This document shows, one piece after another, positions 44,735 to 56,921 of a DNA stretch of 64,000 bases. Every line of letters starts with the position of its first letter. Within the stretch, counting starts at the first letter, position 1. This stretch comes from a virus. The notes beneath the pieces were generated by a model. The model saw only the letters and a program-made list of their open reading frames with translations. It searched no databases and was not told the origin of the DNA. The DNA lies in IMG/VR virus record IMGVR_UViG_3300024289_000019, positions 32,001 through 96,000 of that record; one strand, given 5' to 3'. Position numbers and translations under genes: made by a program.

Positions 44735-44949
44735 TATTTCTCCTTTGTTTCTTCCATTATATCAAGAGCCACTGACAAAATGTGGTCACAAGCAGATACC
44801 TGGCCACTCGTCCAATTGTATTCAATATCTAATTCAGCAAAGTCTTTTGAGGCGGGGTCCAAAGCATCCATCTGATTAGATAATTGCTCTAAATCCTGGT
44901 TTAAAGACATTATATGTAGTTTGATATATTCAATTAGTTTATGAGACAT
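44734..44949 (-). CDS. Hypothetical protein
   Basis: Shares a W.GQV.A..H motif with the previous gene. Confidence 0.55.
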   Translation of the reverse strand: MSHKLIEYIKLHIMSLNQDLEQLSNQMDALDPASKDFAELDIEYNWTSGQVSACDHILSVALDIMEETKEK

Positions 44950-45074
44950 GGCCTTCCTCCATTAATCCAATTAAAAAGTCGGCGGCTAACCAAACTTCTT
45001 CCTTATCCCTAGAATCAGGTAAAGATTCATGTACATTCAATAAACCCTCAACCATTTCTTCTACATCTTTTAAT

Positions 45075-45329
45075 TTATAACCCAACATTAAAATACTCCT
45101 CATCTTCAGGTGTTAATTCATAGAATAGATTAAACTTAGATTGTAAATATGGGTCTGATGACATTAAAGCAATTTGATAATCTGCATAAAATGTCCCTTC
45201 ATCTAAATTAGAACTATTCCATTGTTCAAATAGATGTTCAGATATTTCAGTAATGACAGCGTCAATTACCATTTGATTCTCATCATCTAAAAATGACCCA
45301 CGGTCATTTAGTTCCAGCCTATCAGCCAT
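45075..45329 (-). CDS. Hypothetical acidic protein
   Basis: ORF overlapping upstream gene. Confidence 0.55.
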   Translation of the reverse strand: MADRLELNDRGSFLDDENQMVIDAVITEISEHLFEQWNSSNLDEGTFYADYQIALMSSDPYLQSKFNLFYELTPEDEEYFNVGL

Positions 45330-46074
45330 TTACTTGCTCCATTCTATAATCAGGGACATGCTCGGAATCCAAGTATATCTTATGGGTCTGACATTCTTTG
45401 ACACAATCAAGGTCTGCCTCGCCTAAATAATTACAAGCAGAGCAAATTTGACCACAATCATTATCGCAATAATCTAATGTATCTTCTGCATCACAATCTC
45501 TACATTTAGATTCATATTCAGAACCTTCTAATTGTTCACCACGAAGGAACTCGCATTCGCCACCCCAACCTGTCTCTTCTTCATAACTAAGAGTAAATAG
45601 GAGTGCTGGATATTGTGCTGATAATTTAGCAATGGCAGGAAACGGTGGAGACCAAGCAGTATTGAAATTATAATAAACTACAAGGTTCTCTCCATTTTCA
45701 GTAGGACCCTCCATATATGTTTCAGGATATTCATCATCTGAAGATACAGCGACATCCCATTTTGTGCCCCATTCACGAACATTGAATGAATACCAGTCAT
45801 TTGTTTGGAATTTCATTTGCTCTTCAATAGGCAATTTATGGTCGGGTTGCTGAAGATACTCATACTCAGTAATACCTGCTTGTAAATGATTATAGATATT
45901 ATGAAAAGCAAATACAGGATTAGGATATGTAGTTTGTTTCTTTTGCATTTGTCCAGTTTCCATGTTCCATGAATCATGGACCTGTGCAAATGGCTTATTC
46001 AATTGTGCTACTAATGTATTGACAAGTTGTGGATTTCCCTCTATGGTCAATCCGTTATATACCCAGTTCGGCAT
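45322..46074 (-). CDS. DUF1281/YubB ferredoxin-like family protein
   Basis: MPNW..N, WYSFNVREWGTKWD, FNTAWSPP, LSYEE. Confidence 0.75.
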   Translation of the reverse strand: MPNWVYNGLTIEGNPQLVNTLVAQLNKPFAQVHDSWNMETGQMQKKQTTYPNPVFAFHNIYNHLQAGITEYEYLQQPDHKLPIEEQMKFQTNDWYSFNVREWGTKWDVAVSSDDEYPETYMEGPTENGENLVVYYNFNTAWSPPFPAIAKLSAQYPALLFTLSYEEETGWGGECEFLRGEQLEGSEYESKCRDCDAEDTLDYCDNDCGQICSACNYLGEADLDCVKECQTHKIYLDSEHVPDYRMEQVNG

Positions 46075-46254
46075 ATATATTCCTTTCGTTCGGTTATTGG
46101 CATAATTATAATGCCTACCACCGACATTTGTCTATATGATGTGGATCACATAAAATGACTAATAGGTTTATTTATCTTATATATTGAGAATTTCAGTGAA
46201 TATAGTTGACAAACGTAAAAAGATCAATCTATCCTCCGCTTTTACGGGCAGCTA

Positions 46255-46375
46255 TAAAAAAAGCGGGGGCCCCAACAGTCTCTCCCTCTGTTGGGCCCCC
46301 TGTGTTTGGCTGCATCCACACTATGCATATTTAAAGACTGGGGCGAAAGGAACCCTGAAAGCCTCACCAAACGTT
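46255..46375 (-). ncRNA. Predicted small RNA with anti-Shine-Dalgarno loop
   Basis: TGATATAAT upstream, GUUUGG/CCAAAC closing stem, loop UUCCUUUCG, GC-rich terminator plus U tract. Confidence 0.6.
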
Positions 46376-46388
46376 ATTTATCATTATA

Positions 46389-46754
46389 TCATACTGAGGC
46401 AGGTTCAAGAGGTGGTACAGTTATACCAGCATGATAAGCGATAAACTCTTCCCATGAATGTCCTTCAACGGTTTTGCCAACCATATCAACATCCACGGTA
46501 AAATCCCAAGCAGCAAAATTGCTAGGTTTAGATACTGCGCCAATGCCATAACCAGTTTCGTCCAGGACCTCATGCTGAATCATATGACTAATAATCATAC
46601 GAATGCAATATGGTGTGTCATTCCACCTTGGACGAGCATGTGCTAATGCTGTAGCAAGTTTAACTTGCCATTCATCTTCTCCCCAATGTGAATATAACCA
46701 AACTGCAGGCTCATTTTCGCCTTCGTTAAAAATATAATTAATTCGTGCTCCCAC
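46389..46754 (-). CDS. Hypothetical phage protein
   Basis: MGARINY...LYSHWG motif. Confidence 0.65.
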   Translation of the reverse strand: MGARINYIFNEGENEPAVWLYSHWGEDEWQVKLATALAHARPRWNDTPYCIRMIISHMIQHEVLDETGYGIGAVSKPSNFAAWDFTVDVDMVGKTVEGHSWEEFIAYHAGITVPPLEPASV

Positions 46755-46944
46755 TGATTTCCGCCTTTTCTCTAGTGTCCTCTTCGATTTTGTCCAATTC
46801 TACTACTTCATAGGACCATTTGTCAAGGCCCTCTTTGAACTCGTTGTAGTGGTGTCCACAGAAAAATAAATCTCCAGCTAAACCTTTAGCCTGATACATT
46901 GCTTTTGCTGTAACACATTTATCACAATTTAATCTTTCTGTCAT
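46738..46944 (-). CDS. Small zinc-binding protein
   Basis: CDKC...LFFCGHH. Confidence 0.65.
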   Translation of the reverse strand: MTERLNCDKCVTAKAMYQAKGLAGDLFFCGHHYNEFKEGLDKWSYEVVELDKIEEDTREKAEISGSTN

Positions 46945-47089
46945 AGTTTTCCGCCTTCTATCATGTCTGATAATCTATCTAAGATCCAAGAGTCGATATC
47001 GTTGATGTCAATCTCACGTAATTTCTCCATGATTTCATCACGGGCATATTTGTAACCATCATCCCAACCGCTCTTATAATCTGACATAT

Positions 47090-47302
47090 TTATCTCCTTG
47101 TGTATCCAGTTTCTTCGTATTCTGATACATAAGTTTCTGTTAAATTAAACTTATCACGAATACGACTTACTTTCTCTATGCTACCAGTTCCAATGTTGAA
47201 TGTCAATGGTGGCATGAAATGTGGGTCCAGTCCAATTACTTGTGCCTCCCAATAGGCCATCTCTAAAGACAGCCTATCAGGAGCGGTAAGTTCAAAGTAC
47301 AT
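47090..47302 (-). CDS. Hypothetical protein
   Basis: ORF in leftward operon. Confidence 0.55.
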   Translation of the reverse strand: MYFELTAPDRLSLEMAYWEAQVIGLDPHFMPPLTFNIGTGSIEKVSRIRDKFNLTETYVSEYEETGYTRR

Positions 47303-47952
47303 TACCAGCGCACATCCGCATCTTCAACATCAAATGATTGAACAACAACATCTCCGTTGTATGCATCAAGAGTTAAAGTATCTTGTAAGAAGTAACGTGC
47401 ATCAAAATCTTCTACGTCCTCCATTGGAATATCGTATTCAACCTCAAATGACATGCTTCCAGTAATACGAACTGTTTGCTTTGGTTCATGACCAAGAATT
47501 TCGCAAAGGTCTCTAAGGACATCTTCCTTTTCAACGTTTGGGTTGTACCAGCCATCAGTATCTAGATTATTAATAATACGACGTATTTGGTCGTTACTAA
47601 TAGTTAGTTGTTTTTCAAGGCGGACCAAGGAATCTAATTTACCTTCTAGGTCCACAGTCTTGATACTTGGGTAAGTTATATCATAACCATTAATAGACTT
47701 ATATGTTGTAAGTGCATTAGGGTTATAGGTCTCAGGGACCGTTGATGTTTCTTGCATTTCTTTCCTTTCGTTAATTGGTGTAATTGTAGCAGGCTCCACC
47801 GACAAAAGGTTGGGCCTACGTCCACATGGACATGTGACATTCATCACACTTCCAGATGGGAATCCGAATTTATCTGATGATGTTACTTCAATTAAAGTAT
47901 CACATTCATCAGGATCGCATGCATATGTATTTTTAGTCCAGGTTTCTGACAT
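47302..47952 (-). CDS. Hypothetical protein with internal promoter and RBS (second start near 47757)
   Basis: N-terminal Cys motif; internal TGTCGG-N10-TACAAT and AACGAAAGGAA before an in-frame ATG. Confidence 0.55.
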   Translation of the reverse strand: MSETWTKNTYACDPDECDTLIEVTSSDKFGFPSGSVMNVTCPCGRRPNLLSVEPATITPINERKEMQETSTVPETYNPNALTTYKSINGYDITYPSIKTVDLEGKLDSLVRLEKQLTISNDQIRRIINNLDTDGWYNPNVEKEDVLRDLCEILGHEPKQTVRITGSMSFEVEYDIPMEDVEDFDARYFLQDTLTLDAYNGDVVVQSFDVEDADVRW

Positions 47953-48173
47953 TAGACATCCGCCATTTGCTTGTGGTATGCTTTGAGGTCCATAACATTA
48001 ATGTTAAGTTCCTCTTCAGGGTACTCATTAATCAAGAAGTTTAATGCTTCTCCTGCTGACTTAAAGTCAGTATAATTAGTTGAATAACCATATCCATATA
48101 TGGTTGCTTCCCAGCAGTCTACCCCTCCAGGAGAGACAGAATATTCCATTTCATATATCTGTGCGTTTATCAT
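47952..48173 (-). CDS. Hypothetical protein, probably leaderless
   Basis: ATG lies just downstream of the TGTCAG-N10-TATAAT promoter at 48181-48202. Confidence 0.5.
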   Translation of the reverse strand: MINAQIYEMEYSVSPGGVDCWEATIYGYGYSTNYTDFKSAGEALNFLINEYPEEELNINVMDLKAYHKQMADV

Positions 48174-48322
48174 GGCCCAAATTATACACGAGACGACTGA
48201 CATTTACAAGCATTTCCAGGGATTTTTTCTAGATTCCCGTATTATCTACATCACATCCGTAAAAGCTCTGGGCGATCCTTAGTATATTGCGGGCGTCTCA
48301 TTATGTGAAACATTTTATCTTG

Positions 48323-48397
48323 CGATGCGTACGGGATTTGAACCCGTGATCTCCACAGTGACAGTGTGGTGAAATAACCAAGCTATTCTAACGCACC
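48323..48397 (-). tRNA. tRNA-Asp (GTC)
   Basis: Reverse complement folds as a cloverleaf: GGTGCGT/ACGCATC, CCACA-CTGTCAC-TGTGG, GGTTCAAATCC. Confidence 0.9.
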
Positions 48398-48442
48398 AAA
48401 TAAAAACGGGGGAGATTTATCTCCCCCGCTAGTTTATCATTC

Positions 48443-49447
48443 TTAGAATGATTTTACTAACTTGAGAAGTTTATTTTTCTCAGCAGTAAGAATTGGGTCA
48501 AAGCCACTCGCACCCGCCATTAGCGTTTCAGAATTGCCACGACCAGAACGGAAATAATCAAGGCGTTCAGTAAGCGCATTGAAAGCACCCCATTTTGTTC
48601 CCTTGATATTAGCGTTAGTTGGTGAGTTATGATAAAGTTCATCAATCAAGATAACTTTATTTTCCCACTTTTTCAAAGCACCCTTAGCGTCTTTTTCAGG
48701 CTTAGGATAAATTGTGCGAATTAGTTTAGAGAATTCGGCATCAGTAATTTCCTGCTTGAAAAGTTCCTGCGCTTCTTTCTCGAATTCATCAAAGTATCCA
48801 AGAGCAAGACCCAAAGTTTCACGAGCAACTTGAATTCTGCCTTCGACAGATTGAGTATGGCGAATTTTGAATGATTGCTTAGCATTACGCATAGCAAGAT
48901 TCAAAGTGTTTTGGCATACAACACGAACAGGTGTAATTGCTGCCTGAACAGCAACAGAACCATCATGTGAAGTCCATACGATTAGATAAAGTTTTGTTTG
49001 GTCATTAGCACCTTGTGGGTCTAACACCATAGTTCTAGGAACATCAACAGTTCCGAAAACTACTTTACCATTTTTGAGAGAACCAGCAGATTCCCAGCGA
49101 CACTCAGGGTTAGCATCATGAATGTTATCTGCGAAAGCAAATAATTCTTCATTCTGAACAGGCTTGTATCGCTTACCAACAGTAGCGAGAACATCAGTTC
49201 CACCATTGAATGGATTTGTGCGAATAACTAACTGAGCGTTAGATACATCATTCCAAGATTCTGAAATGTGGTCGGTCAATGGAGATAAGCGAACATTCCA
49301 ATTAGAAAGTTTTGCTTCATCGAGCATTGTTTGAGTAGTTACATTTTCATCTTGATTGAAAATGCGATTAGCGAGATTGTGCCATGCGGGTTTTCCACGC
49401 AAAGCAAAGGCAACTTCGTTGCCATTTGTTTCTAGGTTATGAGCCAT
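48443..49447 (-). CDS. DUF932 family (phage/plasmid-like protein TIGR03299)
   Basis: MAHNLE...PAWH, YKPVQNEE, ESAGSL, TSHDGS, TPVRVVCQNTL, IRHT, GTKWGAFNA. Confidence 0.88.
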   Translation of the reverse strand: MAHNLETNGNEVAFALRGKPAWHNLANRIFNQDENVTTQTMLDEAKLSNWNVRLSPLTDHISESWNDVSNAQLVIRTNPFNGGTDVLATVGKRYKPVQNEELFAFADNIHDANPECRWESAGSLKNGKVVFGTVDVPRTMVLDPQGANDQTKLYLIVWTSHDGSVAVQAAITPVRVVCQNTLNLAMRNAKQSFKIRHTQSVEGRIQVARETLGLALGYFDEFEKEAQELFKQEITDAEFSKLIRTIYPKPEKDAKGALKKWENKVILIDELYHNSPTNANIKGTKWGAFNALTERLDYFRSGRGNSETLMAGASGFDPILTAEKNKLLKLVKSF

Positions 49448-49686
49448 AGATTTTTCCTTTCATTAGTTAGATTGAGCCTAAGTATAACAGACCCCACCGA
49501 CATTGTAAATAGTTAGATAGACATTGTGGGCAAATCGGACATGTGATCAATATCATAAATTCCTGTGGTTATCCACAGTTTGCCGTAACGCTGTGGATAA
49601 CCCCGCAAGTTGTTGCGGGCCACAAGATCGGGGAAGCTGGGGCGGGAATCTAGATGATTACACAGTTCAAACCCGCCCCAAGATTA

Positions 49687-49869
49687 TTACTTACCGACTT
49701 TTACCATAGCATAACGCAAACCGCTGCCAGTATCTAATCTTAATTTAGTTAGATTAGGTCTGATAGAAATTATTTCGCTAATAGTGCCAGTAATTCCTGA
49801 TTTACCAGTTGTAAAAACATCGCCTTTGCGATAGAAGCGACCTTTCTTGGTATCTAGAATTGGTGACAT
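49687..49869 (-). CDS. Small SH3/KOW-like protein
   Basis: Y.KGD.FTT.KS..TG.I.EI; paralog of 50441..50620. Confidence 0.6.
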   Translation of the reverse strand: MSPILDTKKGRFYRKGDVFTTGKSGITGTISEIISIRPNLTKLRLDTGSGLRYAMVKVGK

Positions 49870-49895
49870 TTTATTTCCTTTCGTTTGTTGGTTGG

Positions 49896-49923
49896 TGAGT
49901 AGTTTATAGTCATACTCAGGACT
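49896..49923 (-). ncRNA. Predicted H-type pseudoknot element, copy 2
   Basis: AGUC/GACU and UGAGUA/UACUCA stems, UAAAC loop. Confidence 0.55.
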
Positions 49924-49934
49924 TTGTTCGTTAT

Positions 49935-50357
49935 TTATAGATAACGAGCAATAGCGTTGTAAGTAGAAGTAGAAACTACTTCCTCATCGGTCATCTTGAG
50001 AATACGAATAGCGTTCTCAATCTCCTCTACCATTTCGTTATACTGCCAATCGTGGAAAGTCTGAAAGTCTTTCTTTGGTTCAGCAGGTAGTTCAATAGCA
50101 TTAGCAGGAAGGTAGAAATCTACATTTATCCTTCCGTCATAACGCTTGTTAGCAGACAAGTTTTCTGCCTTAGAGATAGCAGTTAGAGCAAGTTTAGCGA
50201 CTTCCTTGTTCCACTTCTCTTGGGCTTTCTCAAACTTAGCCTCGTTAGTTGCTTGGTTCTCTCTATCCTTTTGGAGTTGAGCGAGTTTTGTTTCTAAGGC
50301 TTTGATAACCTTAGTTGTAGCGATTTTTACATTTATCGCTTTTCCGTTTCTTGCCAT
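49935..50357 (-). CDS. Hypothetical coiled-coil protein
   Basis: Strong RBS and motif promoter. Confidence 0.7.
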   Translation of the reverse strand: MARNGKAINVKIATTKVIKALETKLAQLQKDRENQATNEAKFEKAQEKWNKEVAKLALTAISKAENLSANKRYDGRINVDFYLPANAIELPAEPKKDFQTFHDWQYNEMVEEIENAIRILKMTDEEVVSTSTYNAIARYL

Positions 50358-50440
50358 TTATTTATTTTCCTTTCGTTGTTTGTTTGGGAGTTTATTATAG
50401 CAGGGACTACCGACATTTTCGGTAATCCCTGCTTGTCTAT

Positions 50441-50620
50441 TTAGTTAGATAGACTTTCCGCTGAGATGGTTGTCCAGCGAGTTTCTTTTGTTGGTAGTTC
50501 CAACAAAACACGCACCGAGCCAGATGCGTTAGGCACAATCTCTTTGATTACGCCTGTTTTCTTTGACTTTAGGGTGGTGAATAAATCGCCAACCTTGTAA
50601 GTATAACCATTTATGGTCAT
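50441..50620 (-). CDS. Small SH3/KOW-like protein (not in ORF track)
   Basis: 59 aa MTINGYTYKVGDLFTTLKSKKTGVIKEIVP...; GAAAGGA RBS. Confidence 0.65.
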   Translation of the reverse strand: MTINGYTYKVGDLFTTLKSKKTGVIKEIVPNASGSVRVLLELPTKETRWTTISAESLSN

Positions 50621-50698
50621 TTTGCTTCCTTTCTGTTAGTAGTTGGGTTGTATTTTAGCATACCCCACCGACAATCGGCAAGGTATAGCGGTGTGAGA

Positions 50699-50965
50699 TT
50701 AGTCACACCAAGCCTCTAGGTGGTGCTGTTCGATAATAGCCCATGCGGGTGCGGTATCTCTGCCTTTATAGGATACGCCTTCGGGCATTGGTATCTCACG
50801 ATCAGTTTCGCCCTCATCATAAGCAAAAATAGCCTCAATACAAGGTTCTACCATGCTAGTAGGAACGGGCGGGTAATGATTAGCAGTTAGATGAATTGAG
50901 ATAGCAGTAGATAAATCTAATCCTAAATCATAGTCAGCTAAATCGTGTGCGAAATTACTTCCCAT
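50699..50965 (-). CDS. Hypothetical phage protein
   Basis: HLTANHYPPVP...HHLEAW. Confidence 0.65.
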   Translation of the reverse strand: MGSNFAHDLADYDLGLDLSTAISIHLTANHYPPVPTSMVEPCIEAIFAYDEGETDREIPMPEGVSYKGRDTAPAWAIIEQHHLEAWCD

Positions 50966-51236
50966 TATTTTCCTCCAATACTGAGTTTTTCATTTGTTCC
51001 ATTTCGTCAATAGTTTCGATTAGTTCCCTGAATTGTGTTTCAGTTAGTAATACTTTAGTAATTTTATCAGTTGTAGCAGAAGCAATAGCAGTAGCATACA
51101 TAAACATAGCCCTAGCGAATTGTTCTTGGTCTAAGTCATGGCGAGAATGGACAATAAAAGAAGCGAGTTCCATTTGTTCATCGCCAATAATTCCCTCTTG
51201 AGTAGCCTCAAGTAGAGCAGAAGCAGTAGATAACAT
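50955..51236 (-). CDS. Hypothetical protein
   Basis: RBS and motif promoter. Confidence 0.65.
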   Translation of the reverse strand: MLSTASALLEATQEGIIGDEQMELASFIVHSRHDLDQEQFARAMFMYATAIASATTDKITKVLLTETQFRELIETIDEMEQMKNSVLEENNGK

Positions 51237-51291
51237 TTATTTCCTTTCGTTGTGGTAGTGGGCTAGATTATACACTAGCCCACCGACATTA

Positions 51292-51546
51292 TTAGGCTAG
51301 GGCTAAGATAGCCTGAGAAGCACCGTCATTTACACGGGCGAGTTCTGCCTCTAACTCATTACGAGTAAATTTGGCAGGATTACCGATAAGTTCTGATACC
51401 ATGCGAGAATTTTCCTCAACAAAGATACCTGCGGGCAGGCGCTTTACTGCTGAATAGAAAGAGCCTTGTGGGTCAAGCATAGAAACAAATTCTACGCCTG
51501 CAACGGAGAATGGGTACTTTACCCAGTTAGTTGTATCTAAAGACAT
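51292..51546 (-). CDS. Hypothetical protein
   Basis: RBS and motif promoter. Confidence 0.65.
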   Translation of the reverse strand: MSLDTTNWVKYPFSVAGVEFVSMLDPQGSFYSAVKRLPAGIFVEENSRMVSELIGNPAKFTRNELEAELARVNDGASQAILALA

Positions 51547-51805
51547 TTATTTTCCTTTCGTTTGTCGTTAGACTAGGAATTATACACGAAGCCTGCGACA
51601 TTTTACATTTGAGTATCGGCGTGTCGGGCATTTGTGAGATTTCTCACAAAATCCCGTGATTATCCACAGGCCCACTTAAACATGTGGAAAACCCCGCACA
51701 TACTGCGGGCCTTTTATATTTTAAAAAATAAATATAAAAATAAAAGTAACGGAGAAATTAAAAAACCGATAAAGATCAACGTTGTCAGAGCTGCAAAAAA
51801 TTCTA

Positions 51806-52528
51806 TCATTTTTTACTCGCAGAAAATCTAACATCCGCTTTACCGTACACACATAAGCCGCATGATACGCATGCGCTGCCATTGGTGGAGATAAGTGGAA
51901 TTTGTTTATTATTTTCAGGACATTTTGCACCAGGCTTACCAATTAATTCTTTCATAGTATTTTCGGTGACTGCAAAAGTTTTACCTAGATACGCTAATTT
52001 AATTCCAGAATTATTTTTGCGTAAGTCATGAGCAATTTCTTTATTCTCATCATCGGTAGAAAAATAAAGAGAGAGGTTAGAAATATCCTTAAGGATAAGC
52101 GCTGCAGACTTTACACGAGTATATACCCAAAATTGCACATCGGGATTATTTTGGATAACCGCTTTCCACGCATATGCATAGGTATCATTAAAGAAATCGC
52201 CATCCCAGTGTATACGGAATAACTTTTCTGCATTACGCTTTTCACAATCTGCAACAAAATCAGCAATCATATCGCTAAGCAATAGAGACATGGTATCCAT
52301 ATCTGCATTGCGTAGCAATTCCCAGTTATGCAGAAGAGTATTCTTTACTCCTTTGTATACTCTTTCAAGTTTTCCTGCATAGCAAACGCTTTCACAAACA
52401 CTAGTGGCACCAGGACACGAGAAATCTTTTCCAGCAGGTAATCCAAAAGTGTTAGCGATTGTTGGGGTTTTTCCATTTTTTGAGACAGCATTAGCGACCT
52501 TCCTATCATTAGACCTTTTTAGTTTCAT
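51806..52528 (-). CDS. Gene product 88 (GP88)-family protein
   Basis: SCPGATSVCESVCYA, FRIHWDGDF, FWVYTR, CVSCGLC. Confidence 0.75.
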   Translation of the reverse strand: MKLKRSNDRKVANAVSKNGKTPTIANTFGLPAGKDFSCPGATSVCESVCYAGKLERVYKGVKNTLLHNWELLRNADMDTMSLLLSDMIADFVADCEKRNAEKLFRIHWDGDFFNDTYAYAWKAVIQNNPDVQFWVYTRVKSAALILKDISNLSLYFSTDDENKEIAHDLRKNNSGIKLAYLGKTFAVTENTMKELIGKPGAKCPENNKQIPLISTNGSACVSCGLCVYGKADVRFSASKK

Positions 52529-52576
52529 TATACACCTTTCGTTATGGGCCCTATTGTAGCAGGGCCCACCGACATT

Positions 52577-53074
52577 TTACCAAGAGGACTGATAGTAGTA
52601 GGATAAATCCTTATACTCATCATTTTCTACTAGTGGGGCTATCTGCTTGATAGTGTCCTTGATATCAGACCAATAGTATTCATCGATATCATATGAGCCG
52701 AAAAAGAAACCAGCAGACGGCATTAGTTCGCTAGGGTCTTTCTTGAATAAGGCTTGACGGCAGGTAGTAAGTAATTCTTTTAGTTTATCACGAGATACAT
52801 AGTATTCACCGCAATTATCTTCACCGCCTTGTACATTATCGACAAACCATTTGTGTATCTGATTAGCCTTACGCCAATACGCCACATTTACGCTAACATC
52901 TACGCCATAGATACTTTCAGTATCTACAAGAGTATCAACACCAGCAGCATTTACTACATCATTCCATTGTGGATAAGTTGCAGCAGAGTATTTAGTGTCT
53001 AAATCTCTATCTAATTTAGACCAGTCAATTTTAGCAATATGCTTACGAGCAGAGAGGTACATATCTAAACCCAT
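52577..53074 (-). CDS. Conserved phage protein
   Basis: MGLDMYL...YWRKANQIHKWF...GFFFGS...YYQSSW. Confidence 0.75.
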   Translation of the reverse strand: MGLDMYLSARKHIAKIDWSKLDRDLDTKYSAATYPQWNDVVNAAGVDTLVDTESIYGVDVSVNVAYWRKANQIHKWFVDNVQGGEDNCGEYYVSRDKLKELLTTCRQALFKKDPSELMPSAGFFFGSYDIDEYYWSDIKDTIKQIAPLVENDEYKDLSYYYQSSW

Positions 53075-53368
53075 TATTTTATTCCTTTCGTTAGGTTAGG
53101 CTGCTATTATAGCGGAAGCCACCGACAAATTCCACGACACGCCGAAAAAATTCCTGTGAAAAAAATCACATCTACTTAACGACACGCCCGACCCCGCAAG
53201 ATCTGCGGGCTTGTTGAAATTTCAACTAATCCCAATTAGTTTTCAAACCAGCTGCGGTTTTTTTATGTTTTGTTTTTCTTGAATAAATTTTTTTAGATTT
53301 TATTGGCGTTGCGGCATTTGACCTCCGCAATTCCAAAATTCTTTTTATTCTTTCTTTATTTGGTAATT

Positions 53369-53560
53369 TCATTTTGTTCCTAACTTTGGTAATTTGTAAT
53401 TTGAAGCGTCATAGAATTTATTTGCGTCAAATCTTGGATTATCTTTCGCAAACATTTCCGCAAAATCTATAACCATTTTTGAAAAAACGGCTGGGTGAGT
53501 TTTATCGCTAACATAGTTTAGAATTTTAGCGGTTTCAACATAGTGTTTTTTAGATGTCAT
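53369..53560 (-). CDS. Hypothetical phage protein
   Basis: KKHY...FAKDNPRFD motif. Confidence 0.65.
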   Translation of the reverse strand: MTSKKHYVETAKILNYVSDKTHPAVFSKMVIDFAEMFAKDNPRFDANKFYDASNYKLPKLGTK

Positions 53561-53763
53561 TTTTCCACGACCCTTCTGCCTTCACGATAAAAGATTTTGG
53601 TATAGCATTTTCCGCTAGGTGTGTAGAGATTTACAGTTGAGTAATCCATAGCAAATCCCCAATCCACATAACTAGCAAAACTCTTGTGAGCCTCTAGTTC
53701 ATCAGCGATTTGTTGTGTGAAGTGTGGAGAATTTTCATCATAAGCAACAGTTATTTTATACAT
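53557..53763 (-). CDS. Hypothetical protein
   Basis: ORF in leftward operon. Confidence 0.6.
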   Translation of the reverse strand: MYKITVAYDENSPHFTQQIADELEAHKSFASYVDWGFAMDYSTVNLYTPSGKCYTKIFYREGRRVVEK

Positions 53764-53984
53764 TAGTTAGCCTCCTGAGTAGCAAAAATTGAAAGTTCAT
53801 TTTCGGAAAGCAATCCGTTATCCCAAATCACATCTCCGTCATTATCTAAAATAAGTTCATAGGGATTACACTCGCAAGTTTCATAGTCAAAATAATCCTC
53901 GCCATTTCCCCAATAAATAGCACCCATACCACGACAGGCATCACAATTTTTTATTGCTCTTAGAGCAGTTTCAAGTTTATCCAT
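53763..53984 (-). CDS. Small zinc-binding protein
   Basis: CDACRGMG...CEC; paralog at 55729..55848. Confidence 0.6.
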   Translation of the reverse strand: MDKLETALRAIKNCDACRGMGAIYWGNGEDYFDYETCECNPYELILDNDGDVIWDNGLLSENELSIFATQEAN

Positions 53985-54144
53985 TTTCTTTTTCCTTTCT
54001 TTCTTGAATTGTAGCAGTTAGCACCGACAACGCTTCCGCCTTAGAGGCTTCACGCTGGGCGTTGATAAAGTTTCTGAATTCGATCAAATCCATTTTAGTT
54101 TTCCTTTCGTTTATTGGTTAGATTATAGCGGAAGCCACCGACAT

Positions 54145-54357
54145 TTAGTCGGGAAGCCTAACCGCAACAGTAGCCCACTCATCTTTGAGCGAACCCGTAG
54201 GGCGGTAGCGAATTGAATAGGCTTCGTAGCCCTCAGATAAATAGACATCATCTCGCTTTTCCGCAAAGTTGATAATTCCGCCATTGTATCTCCTACGCAT
54301 AGAAGTAGGCGCATAGTATTGGTCAATTAGTAAATCAACAATAGAATATGAACGCAT
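54145..54357 (-). CDS. Hypothetical protein
   Basis: Paralog of 56010..56204. Confidence 0.6.
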   Translation of the reverse strand: MRSYSIVDLLIDQYYAPTSMRRRYNGGIINFAEKRDDVYLSEGYEAYSIRYRPTGSLKDEWATVAVRLPD

Positions 54358-54881
54358 TATCCTAGTATCCTTTCTCCATAGTAATTCTCAAAATCAGCAA
54401 TAGTCATCAGACCTTTATACTCATTACAAAATCCGCAGAATTTAGTATCCGCAGAGTATTCAGTTTCGCAGAAGCAACAAATTAGTTTCATTTAGTTATC
54501 CTTTCTAACTTTCTTGGCGAAAGTTTATCAGAAAGCACCGACATTTTCAAATCCAAATCGTAATTTCTCAAATAGTAAGACGGCGTGTCGTGTGATAAAA
54601 ATCACAAATTTTTTTTGTGATAAATCTCACAAAATTCCCGTGATTTTTAAAATTGGACATAAAAGACAAATCGCCCCCACACTACGTACGGGCGTGATCG
54701 AGCTTTGTCAAGACGACACGCCGCTTAGGCGGTGTGAGTTGCCTCACATTCCGCAGAGCATTCGGCGGGAAGGCTAAAGAGATACTTTAGCAGAGCCTTA
54801 CGCTCAGACATAGATATTTCAGGGTGATATTGTTTTACACCACCATGTTGATATTCAAAGATGATTTTATCTAAAGTTTTT

Positions 54882-55088
54882 TTAGTTAGCATTTACTTTA
54901 TTCCTTTCTAAATCTTTATGTGCGTAGTAGCAACGCATTTCGTGAAGTCTAATCCACTTTGAGATTTGAAATCTTGAACAGATGTAGCATTTATGCCACT
55001 TTTGTTTTAGCCAAATTTTATTGTTATCTGAATTGTATAAATCCAACATTGTGTGTTGTTTTTCGCATTTACATTTTTTGTTAGTCAT
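54882..55088 (-). CDS. Small Cys/His-rich protein
   Basis: GAAAGG RBS and motif promoter. Confidence 0.5.
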   Translation of the reverse strand: MTNKKCKCEKQHTMLDLYNSDNNKIWLKQKWHKCYICSRFQISKWIRLHEMRCYYAHKDLERNKVNAN

Positions 55089-55728
55089 TTTCTAAACCAA
55101 CCTTTCTAACTTTCTAATAACTGAAGTCTAGCAGGGGGGTCTGACATTCTACTGACCAGTATGCGTACAAATCGGACATTTCGTTTTGTGATTTACACCA
55201 CATTTTCCAGGCATTTAGACAAAACGGACATAAGGGTACAAAACGCCCGCAAAAGACTGCGGGCAGCTGCCGATTTTGTCAAATCGACACGCCGCTTTTA
55301 TTTTATTTTTTTATTTCTTTTGTTGCCAATCTGATCGTGTAAATTACGCTAAGAATTAGCGCAATTTGAACAGCGGAAGTTAGAAGTCTATTCATTAGAA
55401 CATTTCACCGCTTTCTAGTAGAGCATCAAACTCAGCATCAATTTCTTTTTCTAGCAGAACATCAAGAGAGATTTCATCTGCCTCATCATCAAAGTATTCA
55501 TTTACTACATAACTATCTTGAATACTTTCATATTTATATTCACTAGGGTTTCTTTCCCAACTCATAGCATACATTATTTATTTTCCTTTCTTATTGCGGT
55601 AAATCTTATACGCTACCACCGACAAAATAACTAGACCTAGACCTAGCCAAGAAGCGTAGAAATCAAATTGAGCGGTCTCAAAGGCAATTCCATCTGACCC
55701 TAATTCTATTAGTAAGTATCTATCCATT

Positions 55729-55848
55729 TTAGTTATTCTCCTTTATACATTCGCAAGTTTCTACATCATAGTCTAAGTCATTACCCCAAAAGATAAGACC
55801 TACGCCATTACATTCATCACATTCAATTCTAGTTAGAGAGTTTATCAT
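55729..55848 (-). CDS. 39 aa zinc-binding peptide (not in ORF track)
   Basis: MINSLTRIECDECNGVGLIFWGNDLDYDVETCEC; AACGAAAGGAA RBS. Confidence 0.6.
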   Translation of the reverse strand: MINSLTRIECDECNGVGLIFWGNDLDYDVETCECIKENN

Positions 55849-55884
55849 TTATTTATTTCCTTTCGTTAGTGTGATAGTAGGTCT

Positions 55885-55924
55885 TATTTGCTAGGCTCAC
55901 CTTTCGGATTATTTGCTAGGCTCA
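55885..55924. repeat. Two 16-bp direct repeats TTATTTGCTAGGCTCA inside an inverted repeat
   Basis: Seen directly; flanked by ATAGTAGG...CCTACTAT. Confidence 0.9.
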
Positions 55925-56009
55925 TACCTACTATTCAATTTTGTTATGTCGTTAGACTATCAGACCTGACCGACATTTTCAAGCCGACACGCCGAAGCGT
56001 GGGTGTGAC

Positions 56010-56204
56010 TTATGCCACACTTACCGCTACTGAGCGGTAGGTATAACCTCCGCCATTCTTACGGATTTCTACAAGATACGCCTCAGCGTTTTCATACCAT
56101 ACACAAGACGGATGTTTTTCAGCCGATACGATTTCGCCCTCAACGGAGCGGGAACGATAAGTTTTACCTACTAGGAGGTTTTCGATAGAGTATAGATTAG
56201 CCAT
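56010..56204 (-). CDS. Hypothetical protein
   Basis: GAAAGGAG RBS; paralog of 54145..54357. Confidence 0.6.
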   Translation of the reverse strand: MANLYSIENLLVGKTYRSRSVEGEIVSAEKHPSCVWYENAEAYLVEIRKNGGGYTYRSVAVSVA

Positions 56205-56921
56205 TATGGTAATCTCCTTTCATTAAGTTAATCGGTATTATTTCAGATTTATTAAGTTTTTTCAAGTCGACACGCCGTTAAGAGAGTGTGATTTGTATCA
56301 CTTGTGGATACAATCACTTTCAATCTCATGACCGAATTCATCTACTAATTCTTCATAGATTTCATCTAGATAATCAAGATAATCAGACATTATTTCTCCT
56401 TTCATTATGTATAGAATACTAACATAGACCACCGACATTTTGACCCGTTTTTCGGGCGTGTCGCAAAACTATTTTTGTGAGATACCTCACATTATGGGCG
56501 CACTATCTATTTTTAAAAAATTTTAAAATAACGTGTATCATACAAATTAAAAATATATTAACATTTTAGAAAAATGAAATTACTAGTTGACTAAAATAAT
56601 ATTAGCATGATAAGATTTATCCAATGTCAGCTAATAGAGTATATATCTGCGATAAATGCGGAGCGGAAATCCAAGTAAGATCTAATTTTGTGTTAAAAAC
56701 ACACTACAATCACATCAGGGAATGTAAAGCTCAATAAAAGCGAAAATCCCTTCGGAGGCGGATCCTAGGGGATTTTCTAATGTAAGGGAGAATGGTGGTT
56801 CTCAACCAAACACTTCTATAATAATAACATATGTGTAATTTGTAGTCAACTAGGAAGAGTATCTGCTATATCAACTGCATCATCTATAGTACGTGGATGC
56901 TCTGATGTGCAATCTCCACAA

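Follow-up and report, generated by a model that had tools for sequence, protein, structure and literature searches.

What reads the palindromes that crowd one block of small genes in an uncultured phage, and does their reader act on the promoters beside which they stand? The block lies in a stretch of 64,000 nucleotides (the window), which spans genome positions 32001-96000 of the 112,301-bp virus record IMGVR_UViG_3300024289_000019 in IMG/VR. The palindromes have the form TGTGA-N6-TCACA and match the published consensus of the CRP/GlxR regulators (PMC10187061, PMC4117774), as the initial annotation of this DNA had stated. They precede about 11 of the approximately 18 promoters of the block (about 60%), at distances that follow the turns of the helix. 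From these features we lean towards the view that a CRP-type dimer of the host co-activates the phage promoters in a class-I-like manner, and the arrangement suggests that a global regulator of the host may help to switch on the small-gene block.

The palindromes are far too frequent to be a product of chance. Eight perfect copies were found in the window where 0.07 are expected, and 13 copies with at most one mismatch (five with exactly one) where 2.55 are expected; a control with the reversed pattern gave no match. All of these sites are confined to 46.1-56.5 kb, and the eight perfect ones occupy 8.7 kb within the leftward block. In the 48 kb of the genome outside the window there is no perfect palindrome and one extra one-mismatch copy (genome 99768). 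The initial annotation had listed seven perfect and five one-mismatch sites and had put the chance expectation at about 0.1 perfect sites per 64 kb. Its coordinates were borne out and its estimate lies close to the computed value, but it had overlooked the eighth perfect site (47833-47848), so that the excess is stronger than claimed. Twelve palindromes, including a two-mismatch remnant at 48240, lie upstream of leftward TGTCRGTG-N8-TAnnnT promoters of the RecA-NDp/PafBC type, and two more (54733 and 56287) precede GGCGTGTCG-N2-TTGAMA modules by 10 nt, 57.5 bp from a possible -10; no PafBC-type promoter was found within 130 bp of the 54733 palindrome. The block and its sites are as follows, with distances measured from the centre of the palindrome to the last base of the -10 hexamer.

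44756-56437, minus strand: leftward small-gene block with about 18 TGTC[A/G]G-N10-TAnnnT promoters (-26 box plus -10)
56476-56491, minus strand: perfect palindrome, 67.5 bp to the -10 of promoter 56437-56416
56287-56302, minus strand: one-mismatch palindrome over the stop of the upstream gene, followed by N10-GGCGTGTCG-N2-TTGAAA-N17-AATAAT; 57.5 bp to a possible -10
56004-56019, minus strand: one-mismatch palindrome, 57.5 bp to the -10 of promoter 55975-55954
55187-55202, minus strand: one-mismatch palindrome, 69.5 bp to the -10 of the variant promoter TGTCAGAC-N8-TAGACT (55146-55125)
54733-54748, minus strand: perfect palindrome in the last codons of the open reading frame (ORF) 54725-54892, 10 nt upstream of GGCGTGTCG-N2-TTGACA
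54616-54631, minus strand: perfect palindrome, the distal one of a tandem pair (centres 25 bp apart), 101.5 bp to the -10 of promoter 54543
54591-54606, minus strand: perfect palindrome adjoining a CGACACGCCG box, 76.5 bp to the -10 of promoter 54543-54522
53155-53170, minus strand: perfect palindrome, 56.5 bp to the -10 of promoter 53127-53106
51633-51648, minus strand: perfect palindrome of the off-phase class, 61.5 bp to the -10 of the variant promoter TGTCGCAG-N8-TATAAT (51600-51579), with a CGACACGCC box between palindrome and promoter
50692-50707, minus strand: perfect palindrome over the stop of ORF 50699-50965, 47.5 bp to the -10 of promoter 50673-50652
49542-49557, minus strand: one-mismatch palindrome upstream of the DUF932 gene, 68.5 bp to the -10 of promoter 49502-49481; its orthologue is perfect in most relatives
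48240-48255, minus strand: two-mismatch remnant, 66.5 bp to the -10 of promoter 48202-48181; the orthologous position bears a perfect site in many relatives
47833-47848, minus strand: perfect palindrome within the continuous ORF 47302-47952, 57.5 bp to the -10 of promoter 47804-47783
46135-46150, minus strand: one-mismatch palindrome, 37.5 bp to the -10 of promoter 46126-46105 and 8 nt to its -26 box

None of the window sites overlaps a core promoter (-26 box or -10), and the nearest one stops 8 nt upstream. Their placement in intergenic gaps or at gap edges, as first described, mostly holds; four sites (50692, 54733, 56004 and 56287) extend into the final codons or stop codon of the gene before them, and 47833 lies inside an ORF of 216 amino acids. 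This ORF (47302-47952) encloses the palindrome, a PafBC-type promoter, a ribosome-binding site and an internal ATG (about 47757); it represents either two genes joined in frame in this phage, or a small Cys-rich gene whose 3′ portion houses a promoter.

The distances listed above (37.5, 47.5, 56.5, 57.5, 57.5, 61.5, 66.5, 67.5, 68.5, 69.5, 76.5 and 101.5 bp for the PafBC-type promoters) reproduce all nine values from 37.5 to 76.5 bp that had been reported earlier, and add 57.5 (47833), 101.5 (54616) and 66.5 bp (48240). The window by itself offers modest evidence of a ladder (p about 0.007 in the Rayleigh test at 10.5 bp). We therefore turned to related phages, which were gathered with the DUF932 protein (48443-49447). 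This yielded 277 IMG/VR loci, the best 80 of which are 87-96% identical; counts of promoter linkage and phasing were drawn from > 190 related loci. In this family the distances peak at 46.5-47.5, 56.5-57.5, 66.5-67.5, 77.5-78.5 and 87.5-88.5 bp, with a lesser peak at 62.5 bp. To limit pseudo-replication, the DNA between palindrome and box was clustered into 71 sequence families with one modal distance each, and the 69 families with a distance within 110 bp were subjected to the Rayleigh test, although they are perhaps not fully independent because sub-modules recombine. R reached 0.665 for a 10-bp and 0.656 for a 10.5-bp period (p about 1e-13), compared with 0.10 and 0.21 at the control periods of 8 and 13 bp. 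Dissimilar spacers share the same length, e.g. six distinct 18-nt spacers yield 47.5 bp, and from one phage to another the distance at the same downstream gene changes between 47.5, 57.5 and 67.5 bp. The separate set of one-mismatch sites shows the same ladder, including the 37.5-bp rung. Thus the sites lie upstream of the -35 region by integral helical turns (rungs at 47, 57, 67, 77.5 and 88 bp). The earlier statement that all but one site fall on a roughly 10-bp ladder is accordingly strengthened by the phage family as to the ladder itself, but it has to make room for a genuine minor class near 62.5 bp. Tandem palindromes also occur in relatives, 23-25 bp apart, with the distal copy 2-3 bp off the ladder.

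The link between palindrome and promoter is likewise a property of the whole family. The best 80 relatives (1.31 Mb) contain 499 perfect palindromes, as compared with 0-8 copies of each of eight control words, which include the half-sites at N4, N5, N7 and N8 spacing and in everted arrangement; window sites and relatives alike keep the N6 spacing and the match to the CRP consensus. Altogether, 480 of 507 perfect sites have a TGTC..-N10-TAnnnT promoter no more than 130 bp downstream. Of 962 unique promoters in the family, 399 are accompanied by a perfect site at 36-100 bp; for 160 the site has one mismatch and for 43 it has two, while the remainder resemble the shuffled background, i.e. the distribution is bimodal. 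The regulatory regions are mosaic, such that one gene has different upstream modules in different phages. A scan of IMG/VR for palindrome-N{8,38}-TGTCGGTG returned 113 stretches; the matches with a proper -10 were nearly all of low G+C content (35-41%) and shared DNA with the phage, whereas unrelated matches lacked a -10 and had scattered gaps. Absence of the sites from related phages had been named beforehand as a reason to abandon the CRP interpretation; instead, both the palindrome-promoter link and the ladder are kept across many relatives. The array was absent from the cultured Streptomyces kin, with no site in Jay2Jay and one in the whole genome of BillNye, and the terminal repeat of Jay2Jay contains no TGTCGG-type promoter. 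We had considered these Streptomyces phages, the closest by DUF932 and GP88, as a cultured test system and rejected them for want of an array.

What kind of protein would recognize these sites? In 336 unique sites, the information resides in the two pentamers TGTGA and TCACA. Symmetrically, position 6 favours G or T and position 11 A or C. A and T prevail in the centre, and the flanks show a weak bias, towards T upstream and towards A downstream. Where sites carry one or two mismatches, the changes fall on half-site positions 5 (90 cases), 1 (44) and 2 (23), and hardly ever on 3 (three) or 4 (four), which marks GTG-N8-CAC as the protected core. CAP reads G2 and G4 through R180, E181 and R185 (PMC10187061), and the protected core, as judged from this substitution pattern, fits such chemistry.

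The promoters downstream of the palindromes point to a second host factor. On its minus strand the block has 15 exact TGTC[A/G]GT[G/C]-N8-TAnnnT motifs plus variants, located 15-25 nt upstream of the ribosome-binding site (GAAAGGA), with the TGTC[A/G]G element 10 nt upstream of the TAnnnT -10 as is characteristic of PafBC promoters. If the last T of the -10 is set at -7 (start 7 nt after the -10), the box occupies -28 to -21, which is where damage promoters of mycobacteria have the PafBC '-26 element' (PMC8635444). Chromosomal PafBC (RecA-NDp) promoters share with those of the phage both TGTC[A/G]G at -28 to -23 and TAnnnT at -12 to -7 (PMC8635444), and in both groups most promoters have no canonical -35; unlike the chromosomal ones, several phage promoters bear TTGAAA beside the box. 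A six-frame hidden Markov model (HMM) search of the whole phage found no protein with a WYL domain, which implies that the putative PafBC reader is the host's. We know of no upstream CRP-type co-site described for chromosomal PafBC promoters, although no search was aimed at this point.

The host phylum is likely to be the actinobacteria. We take the host as actinobacterial because the phage encodes a WhiB, has a PafBC-like box at -28 to -21 and is related to the Stanwilliamsviridae of Streptomyces, its closest cultured kin by the DUF932 and GP88 genes, which carry the DUF932 gene in their terminal repeat. The G+C content of this river or lake phage is about 36% overall (32-40% in 2-kb windows). 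A candidate host found through the phage hsp20 (best match 38% identical, in a metagenome-assembled genome) was discarded, since the relatives of that genome lack WhiB and it is thus not an actinobacterium; with the phage WhiB as query, all 120 matches listed were WhiBs of the phage family.

Six-frame HMM searches of the phage for HTH_Crp_2, Crp, cNMP-binding, class III cyclase and HTH_3 domains were negative (control genomes were positive), and no regulator-like Pfam or PHROG match was obtained among the approximately 30 block proteins. Metagenomes were scanned with a degenerate pattern of the recognition helix typical of actinobacterial CRPs (S-RETVNKA-L; type as in PMC10187061), which recovered 115 CRP loci, several at 32-39% G+C; contigs of 36-39% G+C encode full-length CRPs. 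One such protein (L337, contig of 39% G+C) contains the cNMP-binding and HTH_Crp_2 domains, aligns end to end with Mycobacterium tuberculosis CRP (3I54; E 4e-78) and GlxR (4BYY; E 4e-76), and has the same recognition helix as these, SRETVNKAL. Its gene neighbours endonuclease III, a thioredoxin-like protein, CvpA and acetyl-CoA synthetase, which presumably repeats the M. tuberculosis Rv3676-Rv3667 order crp-nth-thioredoxin-like-CvpA...acs. Low-GC actinobacteria thus retain a CRP, which is expected to recognize TGTGA-N6-TCACA. The 88 kb of low-GC CRP-bearing contigs contain no perfect palindrome, which says nothing about the regulons of these hosts.

Whether cyclic AMP (cAMP) would be needed is doubtful for the low-GC actinobacterial CRPs. 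The four from the contigs of lowest G+C content (L318, L425, L355 and L337; 36-39%) keep the RT signature of cAMP-phosphate binding and have AN in the C-helix (RLR[K/R]ANDVLSD) where high-GC CRPs have the cAMP-contacting TN; this exchange of Ala for Thr hints that their response to cAMP may be altered or absent. The actinobacterial CRP Rv3676 binds DNA with little dependence on cAMP (PMC10187061). In streamlined hosts with a cAMP-unresponsive CRP, the site may serve as a constitutive recruiter of polymerase.

Collectively, a ladder tied to promoters, the lack of a CRP gene in the phage and the identical recognition helix in low-GC CRPs make a host factor on one helix face the most economical reading. 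The sites and their excess, promoter linkage, phasing and conservation, like the lack of a phage CRP, are observations; the identity of the reader, activation and any role of cAMP are inferred. The palindromes would be operators for a CRP/GlxR-type dimer of a low-GC actinobacterial host, which would bind 47, 57, 67, 78 or 88 bp upstream of the last -10 base, that is, at about -54 to -95 for the assumed start and on one helix face throughout. From there, the bound CRP could assist host RNA polymerase at promoters in which a PafBC-type -26 box replaces the -35. As in class I activation, the upstream activator would touch the flexible C-terminal domain of the alpha subunit and bend the DNA; such a flexible contact predicts one face, an upstream location and a ladder reaching to about -95. 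About 60% of the block promoters would then read two host inputs, PafBC for single-stranded DNA or damage and CRP for global physiology. The initial annotation had proposed that a cAMP-responsive host factor acts from one helix face, or else that the phage titrates host CRP. The first proposal is supported in part, by phased, promoter-tied sites and the lack of a phage CRP; titration alone fits poorly with a phasing so strictly linked to promoters.

Several observations weigh against activation by host CRP. About 40% of the block promoters have no site, and the -10 hexamers of palindrome-bearing promoters match TATAAT slightly less well than those of palindrome-free ones (5.06 versus 5.35 matches). 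The off-phase class at 61.5-63.5 bp is real (six of 69 spacer families), and comes mostly from one spacer family in which the palindrome lies 7 nt upstream of a CGACAC box whose own position, 26-28 nt upstream of the -26 box, is constant. Given a start 7 nt after the -10, the ladder is displaced from the E. coli class I optima by ~3 bp. Nothing connects the low-GC CRP contigs with the host of the phage. Eight perfect consensus sites are unusual for a CRP regulon, where natural sites are mostly imperfect (PMC10187061), and look more like dedicated phage operators. Finally, unrelated viral contigs bear arrays of the same palindrome in other layouts, so that other proteins may read the word.

These last points lead to the strongest rival, that a phage-encoded or virion-delivered dimer of unrecognized fold reads the palindrome, e.g. 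to time or shut off the block, its likeness to CRP being coincidence or mimicry. We regard this as unlikely. The sites are indeed operator-like in being so perfect and so many, nearly all block proteins lack annotation and could include a novel binder, and unrelated viral contigs hold dense arrays of the palindrome in other layouts. However, six-frame searches gave no CRP-like, Cro/CI-type or other known DNA-binding domain, the information in the sites is limited to the CRP core with a CRP-like mismatch spectrum and no extended flanks, and upstream, helically phased sites have the geometry of an activator, which, if it serves the first promoters after injection, should pre-exist in the cell.

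Slightly less probable still is that host CRP binds for a purpose other than activation, be it gating or repression, counter-silencing of an Lsr2-type coating, or titration of CRP during replication. Both GlxR and M. tuberculosis CRP activate as well as repress (PMC10187061). The phage is AT-rich (35% G+C) and carries an Lsr2-like fragment, and its 8-14 consensus sites per genome copy would amount to many sites in a small cell upon replication. Yet neither a sponge nor a counter-silencer needs a fixed phase, and the phase is kept across 69 unrelated spacers; nearly all perfect sites are promoter-linked, and the -26 box and -10, where a simple repressor sits, are free of them. That the palindromes are structural or recombination elements of mobile regulatory cassettes rather than transcription operators is very improbable: the regulatory regions are mosaic, their modules differ between phages for one gene, and conserved words (CGACACGCC, ATGTCCGAWTTG) and hairpins accompany the palindromes, but unrelated spacers converge on equal distances, the half-sites are fixed around an N6 centre that varies freely, and N4, N5, N7 and N8 spacings are essentially absent, all of which argues for a dimeric reader and not a hairpin or crossover site.

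Activation by host CRP can be set beside known systems. At E. coli class I promoters of the lac type, CAP is centred near -61.5, -71.5, -82.5 or -92.5. The phage promoters share with these the 16-bp word TGTGA-N6-TCACA with T favoured at position 6, one dimer site placed ahead of the -35 region, and steps of ~10-10.5 bp, on one helix face. They differ in having a PafBC-type -26 box and -10 instead of a -35/-10 core, in the rung at about -54, the minor half-turn class and the ~3-bp shift (for the assumed start), and in their perfect consensus sites, repeated 8-14 times in ~10 kb. The actinobacterial operators of M. tuberculosis Rv3676 and Corynebacterium glutamicum GlxR have the same consensus and belong to the same likely host phylum (PMC10187061, PMC4117774); in contrast to the dense consensus array of the phage, each site of which is tied to a damage-type promoter, these chromosomal sites are mostly imperfect and scattered. 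With the PeSL cassettes of T4-type phages the block shares self-contained small early genes and control regions that shuffle between relatives, but those cassettes are not defined by sites for a host global regulator in helical phase.

Phage early promoters are usually regarded as strong, self-sufficient and host-type. Here, across an abundant family of phages from lakes and rivers, the small-gene block appears to be wired to two global regulators of the host, and the positional rules match those of laboratory promoter engineering with E. coli CRP; full-text literature searches, which found the CRP and PafBC literature, returned no CRP-type site arrays on phage promoters. We tentatively suggest, as a possibility short of an expectation, that the very abundant freshwater actinophages use two-input promoters in which the PafBC box senses the single-stranded DNA or damage of infection and the phased CRP site senses physiology, such that the first genes fire only in suitable cells. 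If so, the success of infection in the dominant freshwater actinobacteria would depend on the physiology of the host. The family would offer the first natural case in which a virus sets out class-I-type CRP positions as an ordered ladder, and the first class of CRP/PafBC co-dependent promoters. It would also provide a natural series of spacing variants for the cooperation of an upstream activator with PafBC sigma adaptation, and one could test what CRP does in actinobacteria that are streamlined and possibly poor in cAMP.

As to expression of the block, 50-64% of its words are present as contigs in four river metatranscriptome runs. Such contigs show neither starts nor strand and report only the presence of the region in RNA libraries; in the same runs, contig ends did not coincide consistently with predicted starts. 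Over the DUF932 gene (48572-48955) and at 49724-50107, contig word depths were 10-100x those of neighbouring bins in the four libraries. Although contig depth is a poor measure, this contrast argues for RNA over DNA carry-over.

A class-II-like scan (PAL-N{16,26}-TATAAT) returned mostly background and exposed two unrelated lineages that bear arrays. An unrelated viral contig of 37% G+C (L228) contains eight copies of ATTGTGA-N6-TCACAAT in 1.2 kb (32-1202), which resembles an iteron or operator array belonging to a different system. In an unrelated phage family of ~60% G+C (L247, L255, L293 and L309), caTGTGAG-N5-TCACAtgg palindromes stand 40 bp apart and adjoin repeated GCTCGAG words; one more palindrome lies exactly 22 nt upstream of TATAAT, a class-II-like geometry.

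Other words accompany the promoters. CGACAC(GCC) boxes (51619-56463 and related loci) have a fixed start 26-28 nt upstream of the -26 box wherever the palindrome is, and likely mark a second reader that is positioned on the promoter; GACAC is what we take to be the WhiA word. The opposite-orientation arrangement GGCGTGTCG-N2-TTGAMA lies 15 nt upstream, likewise irrespective of the palindrome. A third word, ATGTCC(G/A)WTTTG, often adjoins the palindrome (49532-49542, 55169-55179, 55221-55231 and 54650-54660), and in the Streptomyces phage Jay2Jay (L202) TGTCCG...TAGACT is found ahead of the terminal-repeat genes.

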